Virus record (IMG/VR): IMGVR_UViG_2778261177_000001
Location: 1-6,516 of that record
Reading direction: 5' to 3' (one strand)
DNA length: 6,516 nt
Source: a virus
Lineage: Duplodnaviria > Heunggongvirae > Uroviricota > Caudoviricetes
A model generated the notes under the pieces. That model was given only the letters and a program-made list of their open reading frames with translations, was not told where the DNA came from and searched no databases. A program made the position numbers and the translations under genes. Positions within the stretch are counted from its first letter, which is position 1. Every line of letters starts with the position of its first letter. This document shows positions 1 through 6,516 of this stretch, in pieces.

Positions 1-418
<418 letters not shown>

Positions 419-441
<23 letters not shown>

Positions 442-637
442 TTCTGATCCTCTTCAAAAGGCTACCTGTTACTGGTCGATTTAAGTCAACCTTTACCGCT
501 GATTCGTGGAACAGATACTCTCTTCCATCCTTAACCGGAGGAGGGAATATCCTGCATTCGCGTACCCATCGACGAACTGTTTCAAGGCTTCTTGGACGTC
601 GCTGGCGTGCGTTCCACTCCTGAAGTGTCAAGTACAT
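419..637 (-). CDS. xis: excisionase Xis (lambda-type)
   Basis: 72-aa ORF MYLTLQEWNARQRRPRSLETVRRWVRECRIFPPPVKDGREYLFHESAVKVDLNRPVTGSLLKRIRNGKKAKS, essentially identical to lambda Xis from memory. SD GGAG lies 8 nt upstream of the ATG. The 3' end overlaps the int start by 23 nt. Confidence 0.92.
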
Positions 638-664
638 CGCAAAGTCTCCGCAATTACACGCAAG

Positions 665-685
665 AAAAAACCGCCATCAGGCGGC
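665..685 (-). terminator. candidate intrinsic terminator between the Cys-rich gene and xis (minus-strand sense)
   Basis: Minus-strand RNA would read CCGCC-UGAU-GGCGG (5-bp all-GC stem, 4-nt loop) followed directly by UUUUUU. The stem is short, so strength is uncertain. Confidence 0.4.
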
Positions 686-727
686 TTGGTGTTCTTTCAG
701 TTCTTCAATTCGAATATTGGTTACGTC

Positions 728-1027
728 TTATTCGATGCGCACTCCTGGTATTTCGCCTTTTGATATTGCTAAGTCATAAATTTGCGCGGCACTATACCCA
801 TCTCGCATCCATGAATCTAAGGCGCGAACAGCCTCGCTACGCTTTTTATCTTCTCTCTCATTTTTGATATCAACGAGGACATCAACGCAATTAAGGCAAA
901 TGTGGATTTTGTCCTTACATTCGATCATGGCGGCTTTGCCATGATTTCCGCCACACAGTGAGCATAAATCTTCAGGGGCTGGCTGGTATTTCTGTAACGT
1001 TAGAGGGTTGAATGTTGAACAGGCCAT
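728..1027 (-). CDS. small Cys-rich putative zinc-ribbon protein, hypothetical; occupies the lambda ea8.5 position, possibly Ea8.5-like
   Basis: ORF 728..1039 in the track. I prefer the ATG at 1027 (MACSTFNPL...) because GGAG at 1034..1037 sits 6 nt upstream, whereas the ATG at 1039 has no SD. Cys spacing is C-x2-C-x11-C-x6-C-x2-C, followed by a helical-looking C-terminal half. Stop is TAA at 728..730. Confidence 0.6.
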   Translation of the reverse strand: MACSTFNPLTLQKYQPAPEDLCSLCGGNHGKAAMIECKDKIHICLNCVDVLVDIKNEREDKKRSEAVRALDSWMRDGYSAAQIYDLAISKGEIPGVRIE

Positions 1028-1037
1028 AATCATCTCC

Positions 1038-1064
1038 ATAAAACAAAACTCGCCGTAGCGAGTT
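1038..1064 (-). terminator. terminator-like hairpin plus U-tract immediately 5' of the Cys-rich gene start (minus-strand sense)
   Basis: Minus-strand RNA AACUCGC-UACG-GCGAGUU (7-bp stem, 4-nt loop) followed by UUGUUUUAU. The U-tract abuts the SD and start codon. Confidence 0.3.
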
Positions 1065-1065
1065 C

Positions 1066-1096
1066 AGATAAAAGAAATCCCCGCGAGTGCGAGGAT
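1066..1096 (-). terminator. candidate intrinsic terminator in the intergenic leader (minus-strand sense)
   Basis: Minus-strand RNA AUCCUCGC-ACUC-GCGGGGAU (8-bp stem including one G-U pair, 4-nt loop) followed by UUUCUUUUAU. Confidence 0.45.
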
Positions 1097-1221
1097 AGTT
1101 ATTCATTGTCGATATTTACATTTATTTCGAATATCTTTACTGGGTAATCGCCAAAGTCATATGTTTTTTATTCTGTTTTATAAGCACTACCAAGTACTGC
1201 TTATTACAAATAAGAAAAGGC

Positions 1222-1253
1222 TGAAAAAATATTTAAGGCCACAACTGTGGCCC
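1222..1253 (-). terminator. candidate intrinsic terminator downstream of the DUF1311-like gene (minus-strand sense)
   Basis: Begins 10 nt after the TAA stop. Minus-strand RNA GGCCAC-AGUU-GUGGCC (6-bp stem) followed by UUAAAUAUUUUUU. The U-run is slightly offset from the stem. Confidence 0.45.
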
Positions 1254-1262
1254 TAAATTTAC

Positions 1263-1961
1263 TTACGGCACTGCGTTAATCAGATTACAAATACCTCTTT
1301 TGGCAGGGTCTGAATTCAACTTCTGAAAATTGGCGTTCAACATAGCCGTGTGTAAGTGATTCTCAACCTCAAAGAATAAGTCGATTTTGCCCTCTTTGGC
1401 TGCCTGTTTCTTCCAAATATTCACTTGGTCATCAGCAATACGACTGGCGCAAGTGAACAAGAACGAACTGCCTCTAGGAATGGATGTCGTGCTGTAATAC
1501 TCACCATCTACTTCTACATATTTAGCTCGGAATGACTCTAAGGTTAGCTCATTGCCGTTCTTGACCGACTTAGCTTCTGCCTTACTTGTTTCTTCCTGCT
1601 CTTCAGAATGTTTCTGCGCCGACGTGGGTATGTCATTGGCCGCTGTTACGCTGACTGAACTCCCCAAACCTTTGAGGCCATTAATTTGGATAAGATAAGC
1701 CAGCTCCAGAGCCTTATTATCAGTGAGTTTTCCACGCATATTTACCCACTGACGTTGAACCATTTTTAGGGTGTCTGCGTTCTCTGGGTTTCCTTTGAGG
1801 GCACTAGAATAGGCAGAGCTAAGCTGTTCGTCTAATTTTGACAGACGTTCGTTATCGCAGATTTTATGTTCGATTGCTGTCGAAGCCTTTTGGCAGTCAA
1901 AGCTGGCTGCAAATGCACCCGGCGATGCCACTAACAATGATGCCAGTAGGATATTTTTCAT
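1263..1961 (-). CDS. secreted DUF1311 / lysozyme-inhibitor LprI-like family protein (moron)
   Basis: Track ORF 1263..1988. I prefer the ATG at 1961 (MKNILLASLLVASPGAFAASFDCQKAST...) because GGAG lies 6 nt upstream and it starts a canonical signal peptide (K, hydrophobic core, AFA-A cleavage-like site). The mature N-terminus FDCQKASTAIEHKICDNERLSKLDEQL...Y...QRQW matches my memory of the DUF1311/LprI N-terminal motif. Stop is TAA at 1263..1265. Confidence 0.75.
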   Translation of the reverse strand: MKNILLASLLVASPGAFAASFDCQKASTAIEHKICDNERLSKLDEQLSSAYSSALKGNPENADTLKMVQRQWVNMRGKLTDNKALELAYLIQINGLKGLGSSVSVTAANDIPTSAQKHSEEQEETSKAEAKSVKNGNELTLESFRAKYVEVDGEYYSTTSIPRGSSFLFTCASRIADDQVNIWKKQAAKEGKIDLFFEVENHLHTAMLNANFQKLNSDPAKRGICNLINAVP

Positions 1962-1984
1962 ATTCACTCCATAAATACAAAAGC

Positions 1985-2000
1985 GCATTACTATAGCACT
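1985..2000 (-). promoter_or_regulatory. candidate extended -10 sigma70 promoter for the DUF1311-like gene
   Basis: Minus strand reads GTGcTATAGT, a TGn-TATAGT extended -10 (plus coordinates 1990..1998), about 30 nt upstream of the ATG at 1961. No convincing -35 hexamer. Confidence 0.35.
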
Positions 2001-2091
2001 TAACCGATCGCTTATCTCGCCCGTTCGTCATTCTTATCTAACCAGAACATGCGACTGCCACAGCACATGTCGAGGATTGCTGCATGTCCAG

Positions 2092-2529
2092 TCACTGGTT
2101 GCCTCCTTTGCGAAGCTGGGCGGCTAACTCATCACATATGTGCGTCAAAGAGCAAAGTTTGATTGATGGGTGTTCGCGCATCATCTCAACCCCCTGCGCC
2201 CGCACTTCAGACAGGAAAGAGTCGGTGGCTGGGGTTTCAACACGGATGCTGTCGCGCAAGATGAAAAATGCATTGAGCATTCCAGTCTCTGGCACTTCAT
2301 CCTGATGCTTCTCATACGCATCAAGAGCCTTCATCATCTCTGCTCCGAATGGTTGAGGGTGCACAGACTTCAGCTCCGCATTCTCCGCCGCCAGCGCCGC
2401 GCACTTGGCCTCCGCTTCAGCAAATTTGCGTACCAGATATTCAGCATTTGTTTCGTTAACCTTTAAATCACATGGGATGCATTTACCTTTCAGAAATCCA
2501 TCCATCTCAATTAGTGTCATTCGTTTCAT
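2092..2529 (-). CDS. hypothetical protein (145 aa; coiled-coil-like central segment, CxxC near N-terminus and CxxxxxC near C-terminus)
   Basis: Track ORF 2092..2547 begins at a GTG. I prefer the ATG at 2529, which overlaps the upstream small-ORF stop as ATGA (translational coupling) and has GGAG 9 nt upstream. Stop is TGA at 2092..2094. Start is ambiguous between 2547 (GTG), 2529 and 2520. Confidence 0.6.
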
Positions 2530-2690
2530 TTCTTCCCACTCCGCCACATCGCATTCAGATATTTGTTTTGATTCACTGACGGAGAAGAATTTCTCTTAAG
2601 CAATTCCTCTCTCGATGGCATTGGCTTTACGCGTTGGCGAATAATCATTTCTGCCGGAAGAATGCCGGGATTGTATGCAAGTCCTCTCAT
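2526..2690 (-). CDS. small hypothetical protein (54 aa), middle gene of a coupled three-gene cassette
   Basis: ATG at 2690 is preceded by GAGGA 7 nt upstream, directly after the TGA stop of the 98-aa gene. Its stop overlaps the next gene start (ATGA). This is the 3' part of track ORF 2526..2843, whose full length starts at TTG and overlaps the 98-aa gene. Confidence 0.4.
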
Positions 2691-2700
2691 GGTAAATTCC

Positions 2701-2997
2701 TCAGTCATTACTGATAGCGCCATAGCGTGAGCGGTAATTACGCAGGCGCGGGTCGATATATTCAGGGAAGTGGGTATATGTGGCTTTGCGGAATGGTCGG
2801 ATTGATGTCTGGTAAATTCGCTCGCGTTCTTCTTTCTCTGCAAGCCATATACAGTGGCGAAATTCCTTTTCCTCTTTCGTTTCCTGCGGTAGAGACATTA
2901 TCCGGTCGTAGTTTTTCCTGAATTTATCCAGCACCTCCGATACGGAATTGCCGGAACAGCGGCGCGCGTCATCCGCACCATACAGAGGCGCTGGCAT
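2701..2997 (-). CDS. hypothetical protein (98 aa, basic, Arg/Lys/Glu-rich)
   Basis: ATG at 2997 with strong SD AGGAGA 5 nt upstream (minus strand aatcAGGAGAaaatcATG). Stop is TGA at 2701..2703. No family recognised. Confidence 0.65.
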
Positions 2998-3054
2998 GAT
3001 TTTCTCCTGATTAAATTGCGTGAATAGCGTGACGAGGGAAGGGGAGAGTTACTG

Positions 3055-5913
3055 GTGCAAAGGGTATACCCGAACACGGCACTGGTTGGCGTGCAGGTGG
3101 ACTCGGAGCAGTTCGGCAGCCAGCAGGTGAGCCGTAATTATCATCTTCGCGGGCGCATTCTGCAGGTGCCGTCGAACTATAACCCGCAGACGCGGCAATA
3201 CAGCGGTATCTGGGACGGAACGTTTAAGCCAGCATACAGCAACAACATGGCCTGGTGTCTGTGGGATATGCTGACCCATCCGCGCTACGGCATGGGGAAA
3301 CGTCTCGGTGCGGCGGATGTGGATAAATGGGCGCTGTATGTCATCGGCCAGAATTGCGACCAGTCGGTGCCGGACGGCTTTGGCGGTACGGAGCCGCGCA
3401 TCACCTGTAACGCTTACCTGACCACACAACGTAAGGCGTGGGATGTGCTCAGTGATTTCTGCTCGGCGATGCGCTGTATGCCGGTATGGAACGGGCAGAC
3501 GCTGACGTTCGTGCAGGACCGACCGTCGGATAAGGTGTGGACCTATAACCGCAGTAATGTGGTGATGCCGGATGATGGCGCGCCGTTCCGCTACAGCTTC
3601 AGCGCCCTGAAGGACCGCCATAATGCCGTTGAGGTGAACTGGATTGACCCGAATAACGGCTGGGAGACGGCGACAGAGCTTGTGGAGGACACGCAGGCCA
3701 TTGCCCGTTACGGTCGTAACGTCACGAAGATGGATGCTTTTGGCTGTACCAGCCGGGGGCAGGCACACCGCGCCGGGCTGTGGCTGATTAAAACAGAACT
3801 GCTGGAAACGCAGACCGTGGACTTCAGCGTGGGTGCCGAAGGGCTTCGCCATGTGCCGGGTGATGTTATTGAAATCTGCGATGATGATTATGCGGGTATC
3901 AGCACCGGCGGGCGTGTGCTGGCGGTGAACAGCCAGACCCGGACGCTGACGCTCGACCGTGAAATCACGCTGCCATCCTCCGGCACCACGCTGATAAGCC
4001 TGGTTGACGGGCAGGGGAATCCGGTCAGCGTGGAGGTTCAGTCCGTCACCGACGGCGTGAAGGTGAAAGTGAGCCGGGTTCCTGACGGCGTTGCAGAATA
4101 CAGCGTGTGGGGGCTGAAGCTGCCGACGCTGCGCCAGCGCCTGTTCCGCTGCGTGAGTATCCGTGAGAACGACGACGGCACGTATGCCATCACCGCCGTG
4201 CAGCATGTACCGGAAAAAGAGGCCATCGTGGATAACGGGGCGCACTTTGACGGCGACCAGAGCGGCACGGTAAATGGTGTCACGCCGCCAGCGGTGCAGC
4301 ACCTGACCGCAGAAGTCACCGCAGACAGCGGGGAATATCAGGTGCTGGCGCGCTGGGACACGCCGAAGGTGGTGAAGGGGGTGAGCTTTATGCTTCGCCT
4401 GACCGTGGCAGCGGATGACGGTAGTGAGCGGCTGGTCAGCACGGCCCGGACGGCGGAAACCACATACCGTTTCACACAACTGGCGCTGGGGAACTACACG
4501 CTGACGGTCCGGGCGGTAAATGCGTGGGGGCAGCAGGGCGATCCGGCGTCGGTATCGTTCCGGATTGCCGCACCGGCAGCACCGTCGAGGATTGAGCTGA
4601 CGCCGGGCTATTTTCAGATAACCGCCACGCCGCATCTTGCGGTTTATGATCCGACGGTACAGTTTGAGTTCTGGTTCTCGGAAAAGCGGATTGCGGATAT
4701 CAGGCAGGTTGAAACCACAGCCCGCTATCTTGGCATGGCGCTGTACTGGATAGCTGCCAGTATCAATATCAGGCCGGGCCATAATTATTATTTTTACGTT
4801 CGCAGTGTGAACACCGTTGGCAAATCGGCATTTGTGGAGGCTGTTGGCCAGCCGAGTGATGATGCATCCGGCTATCTGGATTTTTTCAAAGGCGAGATAG
4901 GGAAAACCCATCTGGCTCAGGAGTTGTGGACGCAGATTGATAACGGTCAGCTTGCGCCTGACCTGGCTGAAATCAGGACGTCCATTACGGGTGTCAGCAA
5001 TGAAATCACGCAGACCGTCAATAAGAAACTGGAAGACCAGAGCGCGGCAATCCAGCAGATACAGAAGGTTCAGGTTGATACAAATAATAACCTGAACAGC
5101 ATGTGGGCTGTGAAGCTGCAGCAGATGCAGGACGGACGCCTTTATATCGCGGGTATTGGTGCCGGTATTGAGAATACTCCTGACGGTATGCAGAGTCAGG
5201 TGCTGCTGGCGGCGGACAGGATTGCGATGATTAATCCTGCGAATGGCAACACAAAGCCGATGTTTGTTGGTCAGGGTGATCAGATATTCATGAACGAAGT
5301 GTTCCTGAAGTATCTGACGGCTCCCACCATTACCAGCGGCGGTAATCCTCCGGCATTTTCCCTGACACCGGACGGGCGGCTGACGGCGAAAAATGCCGAT
5401 ATCAGCGGTAACGTGAATGCGAACTCCGGGACGCTCAACAACGTCACGATTAACGAGAACTGTCAGATTAAGGGGAAACTGTCCGCCAACCAGATTGAGG
5501 GCGATATTGTCAAAACAGTGGGTAAGGCTTTCCCGCGGGACTCCCGGGCACCGGAGCGGTGGCCATCAGGAACCATTACCGTCAGGATTTATGACGATCA
5601 GCCTTTTGACCGGCAGATTGTTATTCCAGCGGTGGCTTTCAGCGGTGCCAGACATGAGCGGGAGAATAGCGATACTTATTCGTCATGCCGCCTGATAGTG
5701 AAGAAAAACGGGGCTGAAATTTATAACCGAACGGCTCTGGATAATACGCTGATATACACGGGTGTTATTGATATGCCTGCAGGCAGTGGCGTAATGACAC
5801 TGGAGTTTTCTGTATCAGCATGGTGGGTAAATGACTGGTATCCCACAGCAAGTATCAGCGATTTGCTGGTTGTTGTGATGAAGAAAGCCACTGCAGGCAT
5901 CACGATTAGCTGA
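3055..5913 (+). CDS. J: host specificity / central tail fibre protein J, 5'-truncated (lacks about 180 N-terminal residues; probable pseudogene or remnant)
   Basis: 952-codon frame. From about 3064 ([69 protein letters not shown]...) it matches lambda J from around residue 183 to the C-terminus, as I recall it. An in-frame TAG at 3025..3027 and the divergent gene starting at 2997 leave no room for the J N-terminus. Track start 3055 is a GTG with GGAG about 8 nt upstream. Stop is TGA at 5911..5913. Confidence 0.88.
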
Positions 5914-5931
5914 ATTTTATAACCCAGATAC

Positions 5932-5959
5932 GGGCGCCAGAAATGGCGCCTTTTTTATT
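5932..5959 (+). terminator. rho-independent terminator downstream of J
   Basis: GGCGCC-AGAAAU-GGCGCC (6-bp GC-rich stem, 6-nt loop) followed by UUUUUUAUU, 19 nt after the J stop. Confidence 0.7.
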
Positions 5960-5980
5960 GCAGAAAAGCGAGAGGTAATT

Positions 5981-6516
5981 ATGCGTAAAGTTTGTGCAGC
6001 CATTTTGTCCGCAGCCATCTGTCTGGCCGTATCCGGTGCGCCTTCATGGGCGTCTGAGCAGCAGGCCACACTGAGCGCAGGGTATCTTCATGCCCGTACG
6101 AACGCTCCCGGCAGCGATAATCTGAACGGGATTAACGTGAAATACCGTTATGAGTTTACGGACACGCTGGGGCTGATTACGTCCTTCAGTTATGCCAATG
6201 CTGAAGATGAGCAAAAAACGCATTACAGCGATACCCGCTGGCATGAGGATTCCGTGCGTAACCGCTGGTTCAGCGTGATGGCGGGACCGTCTGTGCGCGT
6301 GAATGAATGGTTCAGCGCGTATGCGATGGCGGGTGTGGCTTACAGCCGTGTGTCGACTTTCTCCGGGGATTATCTCCGCGTAACTGACAACAAGGGGAAA
6401 ACGCATGATGTGCTGACCGGAAGTGATGACGGTCGCCACAGCAACACGTCTCTGGCGTGGTGGGCTGGCGTGCAGTTTAACCCGACCGAATCCGTGGCCA
6501 TTGATATTGCTTATGA
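5981..6516 (+). CDS. lom: outer membrane protein Lom (Ail/Lom family beta-barrel), 5' portion; continues beyond window end
   Basis: ATG at 5981 with SD AGAGG 5 nt upstream. Translation MRKVCAAILSAAICLAVSGAPSWASEQQATLSAGYLHARTNAPGSDNLNGINVKYRYEFTDTLGL... closely matches lambda Lom including the signal peptide. Open to the window end, so absent from the ORF track. Confidence 0.9.
   Translation, partial: MRKVCAAILSAAICLAVSGAPSWASEQQATLSAGYLHARTNAPGSDNLNGINVKYRYEFTDTLGLITSFSYANAEDEQKTHYSDTRWHEDSVRNRWFSVMAGPSVRVNEWFSAYAMAGVAYSRVSTFSGDYLRVTDNKGKTHDVLTGSDDGRHSNTSLAWWAGVQFNPTESVAIDIAY

Follow-up and report, generated by a model that had tools for sequence, protein, structure and literature searches.

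A mobile phage cassette encoding a predicted exported protein with a partial DUF1311 domain and a phage-restricted C-terminal domain

What does a phage-borne gene named after a lysozyme inhibitor encode, and what might its product do for the phage or its host? The gene in question lies in a 6,516-nucleotide stretch of a decayed Escherichia coli prophage (positions 1 to 6,516 of the IMG/VR record IMGVR_UViG_2778261177_000001; this whole stretch is called the window below), flanked by two phage accessory genes, one ea22-like (2092-2547) and the other phrog_3680 zinc-finger-like (728-1039); an earlier note made from the sequence alone had likewise placed it between phage accessory genes. Its product corresponds to RefSeq WP_000789829.1, "lysozyme inhibitor LprI family protein", and to phrog_4675, whose annotation in PHROG is 'unknown function'. 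It is an accessory gene that had been catalogued before, and the literature search found no paper on the protein encoded at 1263-1961.

The gene model proposed earlier stands, the gene occupying 1263-1961 on the minus strand (ATG at 1961, 232 aa). ATG 1961 was taken as the start because the upstream in-frame ATG at 1988, which would add nine residues, has no Shine-Dalgarno sequence and is missing from the phage-plasmid orthologues. The coding sequence is under purifying selection (omega 0.13-0.17 overall, pairwise dN/dS), and the protein is built from a helical domain of partial DUF1311 type, followed by a flexible linker and a C-terminal domain restricted to phages, with two cysteines in the first (C23 and C35) and two in the last (C171 and C225). 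PADLOC and NCBIfam searches with the protein gave nothing meaningful, the weak NCBIfam matches (CpoB, A1S_1983) being far under the cut-offs.

Table 1 Coordinates of the gene, its protein domains and the surrounding cassette in the window (a hyphen in a peptide marks the predicted cleavage site).
Feature	Position	Strand	Description
CDS	1263..1961, stop codon included	-	232 aa, ATG start at 1961
Signal peptide	1908..1961	-	aa 1-18; predicted SPase I cleavage AFA-AS, no lipobox; hydropathy and -3/-1 rule
N-terminal helical domain	1662..1907	-	aa 19-100; partial DUF1311 with C23 and C35
Disordered Ser/Glu/Lys-rich linker	1551..1661	-	aa 101-137; pLDDT below 50 (AF2)
C-terminal domain	1266..1550	-	aa 138-232; short helix, beta-hairpin, three long helices (AF2)
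Shine-Dalgarno GGAG	1967..1970	-	5 nt before ATG; identical in all aligned orthologues
Candidate extended -10 TGCTATAGT	1990..1998	-	sole TGNTATANT in the window; conserved in phage-plasmids
Weak -35-like hexamer GAGATA	2013..2018	-	3/6; 17 nt upstream of the -10, read from sequence
Intrinsic terminator	1222..1258	-	hairpin 1231-1258: 12-bp stem, 4-nt loop, then AUUUUUU
Whole exchangeable cassette (promoter-like region, leader, ORF, terminator)	1226..2030	-	common with phage-plasmids
Methyltransferase 5' remnant, 27 codons	2012..2095	-	marks the insertion/replacement site

The N-terminus of the protein has the features of a Sec-type signal peptide: MK, a hydrophobic core ILLASLLVA (mean KD 2.97) and the segment SPGAFA-AS, with a predicted cleavage site AFA-ASFDC. 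The n-, h- and c-regions and the AxA-A site are kept in nine homologues; in all nine, T4-like phage proteins included, position -1 is occupied by a small residue and position -3 by A or V, and sequence invariance among them begins precisely at +1 (ASFDC). The signal peptide and export claimed in the earlier note find support in conserved sequence features, which suggest that the product is a Sec-exported, soluble and probably disulfide-bonded periplasmic protein. The predicted location agrees with that shown experimentally for the DUF1311 protein ScwA of Salmonella, which is periplasmic and a DsbA substrate whose stability is disulfide-dependent (PMC7933661).

By profile comparison, the N-terminal domain is homologous to DUF1311, the family that the earlier note had associated with its cysteine-containing motif. 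In the Pfam search PF07007 (DUF1311/LprI) scored 25.3 bits (E 2.1e-5), narrowly above its gathering threshold of 22 bits; the curated threshold was exceeded in eight of nine diverse family members (best E 2.3e-6), and hhalign aligned the domain to the canonical E. coli YecT with a probability of 87% (E 3.9e-6). The Pfam match is partial and falls short of full length (aa 23-78, profile positions 1-70 of 106), and the alignment to YecT stops at QRxW..R; after this point, where YecT continues FRDKE(C), no cysteine was found in any homologue, and the domain has two of the four canonical PF07007 cysteines (C23 and C35), Cys3 and Cys4 being missing. Its AF2 model has four helices (pLDDT 74-89), and its omega is 0.10-0.13. 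The PF07007 proteins (YecT, ScwA, Etsi4 and the N-domain of LprI) have the same arrangement of a signal peptide, then a C...C...LD..L...Y...QR.W..R motif in a helical domain, whereas YecT, Etsi4 and ScwA are without the extra linker and C-terminal domain present here. Four conserved cysteines were confirmed in ScwA and its orthologues, and Pfam shows conserved cysteines for the family (PMC7933661). No DUF1311 structure was retrieved from the PDB by sequence, profile or Foldseek search. Direct kinship with EHEC Etsi4, a validated DUF1311 immunity protein, was considered and discarded, pairwise similarity being absent; Etsi4 itself falls under the Pfam threshold of PF07007.

The linker differs in length and sequence between homologues (omega 0.4-0.6), and the C-terminal domain is under strong constraint (omega 0.05-0.09). 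Modelled alone with AF2, this domain gave a confident model (pLDDT 87.6, pTM 0.80). Two further cysteines and no recognisable fold had been noticed earlier in the C-terminal half: C171 and C225 are invariant in all the homologues having the domain, and comparison with the PDB returned neither a fold match nor a sequence match. In BFVD the model matched only the Aeromonas T4-like phage homologues; the domain has 12 cluster representatives among 1.84 billion, and a pattern-based scan that took one genome for each species located it only on a phage-plasmid contig. It also follows an unrelated lipoprotein N-terminus in P0062 and P0064, and in Phi1 the N-terminal domain is joined to another C-terminus. 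Relatives of the C-terminal domain were found only in phages and mobile islands.

The expression signals described in the earlier note, a candidate extended -10, a Shine-Dalgarno sequence and a terminator hairpin, are all present (1990-1998, 1967-1970 and 1231-1258), the promoter status being predicted. On both strands of the whole window TGNTATANT (TGnTATAnT) has a single match, at 1990-1998, with 0.65 expected per window; the element is kept in two diverged phage-plasmid lineages, as TGATATAGT in pG6809-1 and TGCTATAGT in L014. Between lineages with a synonymous-site dS of 0.6-1.0, identity over the 40 nt preceding the ATG is 83-90%, and across the family the 5' region is conserved above the level of synonymous sites. 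A generic sigma-70 consensus scan did not call the candidate promoter, because its -35 is poor (GAGATA, 3/6). In the phage-plasmids the preceding gene has the same orientation and the -10 overlaps its stop codon, and co-transcription is therefore possible there. The terminator hairpin at 1231-1258 has a dG of -17.6 kcal/mol (z = -3.7; none of 200 shuffles folded equally well), and its stem GGCCAC/GTGGCC is kept in the phage-plasmids, with a changed loop.

A moron, in the sense established for HK97 and HK022, is a unit of promoter, gene and terminator that has entered between conserved genes of a phage. The cassette at 1226-2030 is 82-84% identical to the corresponding region of SSU5-like phage-plasmids of ~110 kb, and the homology ends at both edges (the comparison took in pG6809-1, a Kluyvera contig and ten IMG/VR loci of ~83% identity); it moves as one block between unrelated backbones, lambdoid prophages on the one side and phage-plasmids on the other. 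This exchanged unit agrees almost exactly with the self-contained moron that had been proposed at 1222-2000. The same slot holds a SAM-dependent methyltransferase gene in O157:H7 and other prophages; in lambdoid prophages the cassette replaced most of that gene, to whose 5' end in O157:H7 and other prophages the window is still 93-95% identical at 2007-2098. The locus resembles phage morons in its promoter-like element, single ORF and intrinsic terminator, in its mobility as one block, and in a slot that related prophages fill differently (methyltransferase), the 5' remnant persisting here. It differs from them in that its GC content is only slightly lower than that of its neighbours (0.40-0.46 vs 0.45-0.54), in that its expression from a repressed prophage is a prediction, and in that the phage-plasmid copies trail co-oriented genes by a gap of 28-38 nt and may be co-transcribed with them. 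At the sequence level the label "moron" is well supported. PSS-08-2, which keeps the terminator region without the gene, was considered as a guide to the cassette boundaries and set aside as uninformative, because the gene was lost there by an IS1-associated deletion.

In the contexts examined, the family was found on mobile elements only. Lambdoid prophages with the gene occur in 107 of 5426 complete E. coli genomes, and in the intact lambdoid relatives the gene sits in the pL-transcribed delayed-early arm; other members belong to phage-plasmids of Enterobacter, Salmonella and Citrobacter, and to T4-like lytic phages of Aeromonas, Klebsiella and E. coli, in which the locus lies in the early region between the primase gene 61 and gene 56; the T4-like orthologues include ORF027c of 44RR2.8t and gp026 of Marfa. 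One homologue is found in a serine-recombinase island of Yersinia, next to Lamassu and PDC-S71 defence genes, and another in an integrase/AlpA island; the association with defence islands was seen at one locus type. A 69-aa ORF, considered as a conserved upstream partner in the Yersinia and AlpA islands, was dropped, the two ORFs being unrelated. The 39%-identical homologue P0055 has opposite-strand genes on both flanks and so must be transcribed on its own. No family of the PADLOC-DB defence models matched at E <= 1e-3.

Our preferred reading, at a low confidence of roughly 35%, is that the protein may be a periplasmic binder protecting the infected cell or lysogen from an envelope-acting protein. 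According to this proposal, the cassette would be an autonomous transcription unit (moron) of temperate phages, and its product would act through binding, not catalysis: in the periplasm it would sequester or inactivate an envelope-acting protein coming from outside, for instance one that cleaves peptidoglycan, the likeliest target being the muralytic or penetration machinery of a superinfecting phage, although a contact-delivered muramidase toxin would be possible too. The outcome would be protection of the infected cell or lysogen, of the superinfection-exclusion or immunity type. T4 Spackle (Sp, gp61.3) inhibits the tail lysozyme gp5 in the periplasm and mediates superinfection exclusion; the T4-like phage homologues resemble it in being small, bearing a signal peptide and lying in the early region near the primase gene 61, and this likeness provides the functional analogy behind the proposal. 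Replacement of Spackle by the gene in T4-like phages was rejected: there is no profile similarity (the family profile against the Marfa spackle gave a probability of 2.4% in hhalign, over the signal peptide only), and since both genes occur together in Marfa, the gene does not simply stand in for Spackle. The purifying selection on both domains (omega 0.05-0.13) speaks for the proposal, as do the expression signals, the conserved signal-peptide features, the exchange of the cassette as a unit and its replacement of a methyltransferase gene, the isolated setting of P0055, the homology of the N-terminal domain to DUF1311, the modular use of the two domains and the distribution on mobile elements. 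Every role of a DUF1311 protein that has experimental support is periplasmic and concerns the cell wall (PMC12981562, PMC7933661). Sequence comparison also yields points against it, namely the partial, near-threshold match to DUF1311, the absent similarity to Etsi4 or Spackle, and the lack of a PADLOC match; pairwise dN/dS gave no arms-race signature. The weak -35, the possible co-transcription in the phage-plasmids and the single locus type behind the association with defence islands also count against the proposal.

A rival reading, in which the protein would be an orphan T6SS immunity protein carried on a phage and shielding the lysogen from a muramidase or amidase effector injected by competitors, seems unlikely. 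Signal-peptide DUF1311 proteins do occur as cognate or orphan immunity genes adjoining T6SS effectors that target peptidoglycan, of the lysozyme-like or PG-hydrolase type (PMC9796082, PMC8867033, PMC12135965), and one of them, Etsi4, has been validated, rescuing the periplasmic toxicity of the T6SS effector Etse4 (PMC12981562); the autonomous promoter/terminator layout of the gene points in the same direction. However, the protein has no similarity to Etsi4, none of the homologues located lay in a T6SS cluster, the contexts being phages, a phage-plasmid and islands, and orthologues in the early region of lytic T4-like phages fit such a role poorly.

About as improbable is a role in modulating either the lysis brought about by the phage itself or the remodelling of the host wall, in which the protein would bind a host lytic transglycosylase or the periplasmic domain of a phage endolysin, spanin or holin and would adjust when lysis occurs, or guard against premature lysis or lysis from without. 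The precedent is ScwA, which positively controls MltD levels and lyses cells when overproduced (PMC7933661), and the presence of the gene in lytic phages, where it would be useful during infection, and in the delayed-early arm of the intact lambdoid relatives is consistent with it. Against this, the gene was linked to a lysis cassette in none of the genomes examined, a cassette layout with a candidate promoter and a terminator of its own is typical of prophage-expressed genes, and no phage lysis genes lie near the homologue of the Yersinia island.

The reading that the name itself invites, a lysogenic-conversion lysozyme inhibitor that would bind host c-, g- or i-type lysozyme in the periplasm and raise the tolerance of the lysogen like Ivy, MliC, PliC and PliG, appears quite unlikely. 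It has in its favour the family name and the PF07007 match over the threshold, the predicted periplasmic location, which makes the protein a small exported envelope protein like Ivy, MliC/PliC, PliG and LprI, a promoter-like element possibly working in a repressed prophage, and the lysozyme inhibition reported for M. tuberculosis LprI in work cited in PMC7933661. LprI also pairs its DUF1311 module with a second C-terminal domain, as the protein described here does. The inhibition by LprI is, however, attributed to its MliC domain in that same citation (PMC7933661), whereas the second domain here is not MliC-like and is predicted to be helical with one beta-hairpin, not a beta-barrel; LprI is moreover a lipoprotein, whereas the protein described here is a predicted soluble SPase I substrate. 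No MliC, Ivy, PliC or PliG domain was detected, PF07007 being the sole Pfam family at E <= 1; no part in lysozyme resistance was found for the DUF1311 protein ScwA (PMC7933661); and homologues occur in obligately lytic T4-like phages, for which resistance to animal lysozyme has no obvious value. For the modulation of lysozyme or endolysin activity put forward in the earlier note, nothing beyond the family name speaks in support, and the DUF1311 match is partial; the note had marked the idea as speculation, which was appropriate. The RefSeq name overstates what is known, and the label is only partly justified.

That the gene is silent baggage in its source genome, an intact ORF surviving in a decaying, rearranged prophage remnant (nothing is left between ssb and codon ~207 of J, int is truncated, the promoter is only a candidate, and PSS-08-2 lost the gene without obvious consequence), is very improbable, given that the ORF matches its counterpart in the intact prophage of strain A25 at 100% identity, that both domains are under purifying selection and that the 5' region is more conserved than synonymous sites, and it would in any case bear on this copy only, not on the function of the protein.

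Returning to the periplasmic binder, a wider and more tentative version of it is that phrog_4675 and its T4-like relatives may form a new, widespread class of phage periplasmic exclusion or immunity factors, in which the C-terminal domain would be a novel fold that specifically binds a muralytic or penetration protein brought in by other phages, or else a delivered toxin, and blocks it, and the DUF1311 part would be a common periplasmic scaffold, by analogy with the pairing of DUF1311 and MliC in LprI. If the protein is an exclusion or immunity factor, a PHROG family that occurs in ~2% of complete E. coli genomes, in phage-plasmids and in many T4-like phages would gain its first known function, a new small fold would be defined, and the role of the DUF1311 module, for which the common annotation "lysozyme inhibitor" is probably misleading, would become clearer.

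The results support a secreted DUF1311-like protein carried on a moron cassette in this window, itself a fragment of a lambdoid prophage (gene order in the table). The product of the phrog_3680 gene (103 aa, CxxC...CxxC) reaches 15.7 bits against the ClpX C4 zinc finger, below the cut-off of 27, and the phage ev099 and many relatives have another small gene in place of the phrog_3680 gene. The AT-rich intergenic region between this gene and the gene under study (1040-1262, 223 bp) holds two more terminator-like hairpins on the minus strand (1096-1077 and 1065-1046), upstream of the zinc-finger-like gene; breakpoints of recombination recur at 1029 and 1065/1080 in related prophages. An Arg-, His- and Pro-rich ORF of 620 aa lies antisense to J (3049-4911, minus strand); almost certainly it is no gene but an artefact of high GC content (0.58) in the J coding strand.

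Features of the window and parts of the encoded protein (pLDDT from AlphaFold2, full length)
Feature	Position	Strand	Remarks
Truncated int	low-coordinate end		first in gene order; minus strand
xis	419-637	-	Pfam Exc, E 4e-41
phrog_3680 zinc-finger-like gene	728-1039	-	phrog_3680 function unknown
Gene under study	1263-1961	-	232 aa
Methyltransferase remnant	2012-2095 (with SD, 2012-2107)	-	27 codons; GTG 2095, stop 2012-2014, AGGAGG SD
ea22-like gene	2092-2547	-	next after gene under study
abc2, P22-type anti-RecBCD	2701-2997	-	follows ea22-like gene
Truncated tail-tip gene J, then lom	beyond abc2	+	end of gene order
Helical N-domain	aa 19-100		pLDDT 74-89
Disordered linker	aa 101-137		pLDDT below 50
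C-domain	aa 138-230		

The expression signals claimed in the earlier note (a candidate extended -10 promoter of the gene's own, an SD and a downstream terminator hairpin) were all recovered. Translation starts at ATG 1961, with GGAG 5 nt upstream; the in-frame ATG 1988 was rejected, since it is not conserved in the orthologues and has no SD. The candidate extended -10, TGCTATAGT, lies at 1990-1998 (minus strand), with 28 nt between its end and the ATG, and is the only match to TGNTATANT on both strands of the 6.5-kb window (0.65 expected). The candidate -35, GAGATA, is weak (3/6), and a generic promoter scan missed the candidate promoter for this reason. The terminator hairpin (1231-1258) has a 12-bp stem and a 4-nt loop followed by AUUUUUU, with a dG of -17.6 kcal/mol (z = -3.7; 0/200 shuffles folded equally well).

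One indication of a self-contained unit comes from the orthologues carried by non-mobilizable IncFIB plasmids (~110 kb) in Enterobacter, Citrobacter, Salmonella and Kluyvera. These adjoin phage-family genes (phrog_3451, Phage_phiTE_072), and because of such neighbours we take the plasmids to be SSU5-like phage-plasmids. They have only 1226-2030 in common with the window (82-84% identity), a block running from just past the terminator U-run to ~30 nt upstream of the -10 and matching almost exactly the moron delimited in the earlier note (1222-2000). The leader, the SD and the -10, including its TG, are retained, the 40 nt upstream of the ATG being 83-90% identical between lineages with a synonymous dS of 0.6-1.0; the terminator stem GGCCAC/GTGGCC is conserved and its loop altered. 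Positions 2007-2098 match the 5' end of a gene for a SAM-dependent methyltransferase (93-95% identity). The intact gene fills this slot in the prophages of O157:H7 and O111 and in many others; the 27-codon remnant, overlapping the end of the ea22-like gene, indicates that the cassette displaced most of that gene. A comparison of 23 lambdoid relatives from IMG/VR shows 1029/1065-2112 moving as one block between variable neighbours. The gene for the homologue P0055 (39% identity) is flanked on both sides by opposite-strand genes, so it must form its own transcription unit. As judged from these comparisons, the sequence evidence for a self-contained moron is good, with the caveats that the candidate -35 is poor and that the GC content of the cassette gene is just slightly below that of its neighbours. 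On the phage-plasmids, co-oriented genes end 28-38 nt ahead of the gene, and the upstream stop codon (phrog_3451 / Phage_phiTE_072; loci L005 4411-5000 and L014 2412-3000) abuts or lies within the conserved TGnTATAGT; co-transcription with the upstream genes is therefore possible there, and the -10 is partly coding-constrained.

The predicted signal peptide (MK-ILLASLLVA-SPGAFA, followed by ASFDC) contains no lipobox. Across nine homologues (down to 25% identity) its hydrophobic core varies freely, position -3 is always A/V and -1 always A/G/S, and invariance begins at +1, in agreement with the secretion proposed earlier. Of the cysteines noted at the mature N-terminus and in the C-terminal half, C23 and C35 belong to the N-domain and C171 and C225 to the C-domain, the latter two invariant in every occurrence of that domain. 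The DUF1311 assignment also held: the N-domain matches PF07007 with 25.3 bits (curated cut-off 22), as do 8/9 family members, and the family profile aligns with the canonical E. coli YecT (probability 87%, E 3.9e-6), which itself scores 64.8 bits against PF07007. Of the 106 profile positions of PF07007, only 1-70 are aligned, the homologues have no counterpart of the canonical third and fourth cysteines, and sequence, profile and Foldseek searches retrieved no solved DUF1311 structure; for these reasons we regard the N-domain as a divergent family member with two cysteines.

Modelled alone, the C-domain gave a confident structure (pLDDT 87.6, pTM 0.80) composed of one short and three long helices plus a beta-hairpin. 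Searched exhaustively with HMMER, 1.84 billion cluster representatives yielded 12 matches to this domain at E <= 1e-3, of which two, both repetitive giants, are probably spurious. A pattern-based scan covering 185,579 species, with one genome for each, detected it at one locus only, on a Kluyvera contig of 109 kb. Omega across three lineages (Nei-Gojobori) was 0.10-0.13 in the N-domain, 0.05-0.09 in the C-domain and 0.4-0.6 in the linker, indicating two functional domains joined by a spacer. The domains are separable modules: an unrelated N-terminus of lipoprotein type precedes the C-domain in the metagenomic proteins P0062 and P0064, and the phage Phi1 joins the N-domain to a different C-terminus. 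Both metagenomic genes (L022 709-1671 and L013 8001-8999, respectively) are directly followed by an 82-84-aa TM2-domain (PF05154) gene, with which the lipoprotein-type variant may form a functional pair. The protein itself is already catalogued (RefSeq WP_000789829.1, "lysozyme inhibitor LprI family protein"; phrog_4675, function unknown) and its N-domain comes from a known family; the linker and the phage-restricted C-domain make it a variant with a new architecture.

Every context examined was a mobile element. The cassette occurs in 107/5426 complete E. coli genomes, always in the int-xis-proximal accessory region, and in ev099. Homologues (26-38% identity) are encoded by ~145 lytic phage genomes infecting Aeromonas, Klebsiella and E. 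coli, almost all T4-like among the matches listed; the early regions of 44RR2.8t and Marfa have the gene between gene 61 (primase) and gene 56, and 44RR2.8t, CC2 and Marfa keep the C-domain with both cysteines. The Yersinia enterocolitica homologue P0063 (30% identity) adjoins Lamassu (LmuA/B/C) and the candidate defence gene PDC-S71, and a further homologue sits in an integrase/AlpA island. The Yersinia island (L002 486-11437) is compact and bounded by two serine recombinases, with LmuB/LmuC/LmuA, PDC-S71, an HTH regulator, two small ORFs and P0063. A related prophage of E. coli PSS-08-2 (L008 4001-4928) has lost the gene except for its last codons and the terminator region; an IS1A element adjoins this remnant, and nearby nin-region genes are truncated.

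What remains of the prophage in the window has been rearranged. Intact relatives are homologous up to 3068, which falls in the terminal ~58 nt of ssb; there a deletion junction (window 3011-3068 / 3055-5913) fuses the ssb end (minus strand) at ~3066-3068 to J codon ~207 (plus strand); this junction was found in no complete E. coli genome of the collection. All immunity, replication, lysis and head genes and most tail genes are absent. Homology is lost at 54-56, inside int, in all related prophages, and window 1-55 is 100% identical to positions 2060-2114 of an IMG/VR prophage (L025), 4.4 kb away and inverted, which suggests inversion or inter-prophage recombination. With pL, N and cI lost, the gene would be expressible here solely from its own candidate promoter.

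One role of DUF1311 proteins with experimental or genomic support is immunity to periplasm-acting, cell-wall-targeting T6SS effectors (PMC12135965, PMC8867033, PMC9796082, PMC12981562); comparison with Etsi4, the validated case from E. coli, gave no similarity, and an orphan T6SS immunity role is unlikely. We hold equally doubtful a modulator of lysis or cell-wall remodelling in the manner of ScwA, a periplasmic DUF1311 protein controlling the lytic transglycosylase MltD (PMC7933661). Inhibition of host lysozyme, suggested by the family name and raised in the earlier note, is less probable still and found no support: a Pfam search of the protein gave no hit to MliC, Ivy, PliC or PliG, ScwA showed no lysozyme phenotype, and the same paper attributes inhibition by M. 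tuberculosis LprI to its MliC domain (PMC7933661). That the window's copy is silent baggage is very improbable; its ORF is 100% identical to the intact A25 prophage copy. Our preferred reading, to which we give a probability of about 0.35, is a periplasmic binder. We propose it because the protein is predicted to be exported and has two domains of binding type, non-enzymatic and under purifying selection, and because its gene is confined to phages and islands, takes an early-region position in lytic phages and in one case has a defence-island neighbourhood. The logic is analogous to that of T4 Spackle, but the proteins are not homologous; a replacement for Spackle was rejected, as Marfa carries both. 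Once exported, such a binder would capture an incoming muralytic or envelope-acting protein in the periplasm and neutralise it, which would amount to superinfection exclusion or immunity.
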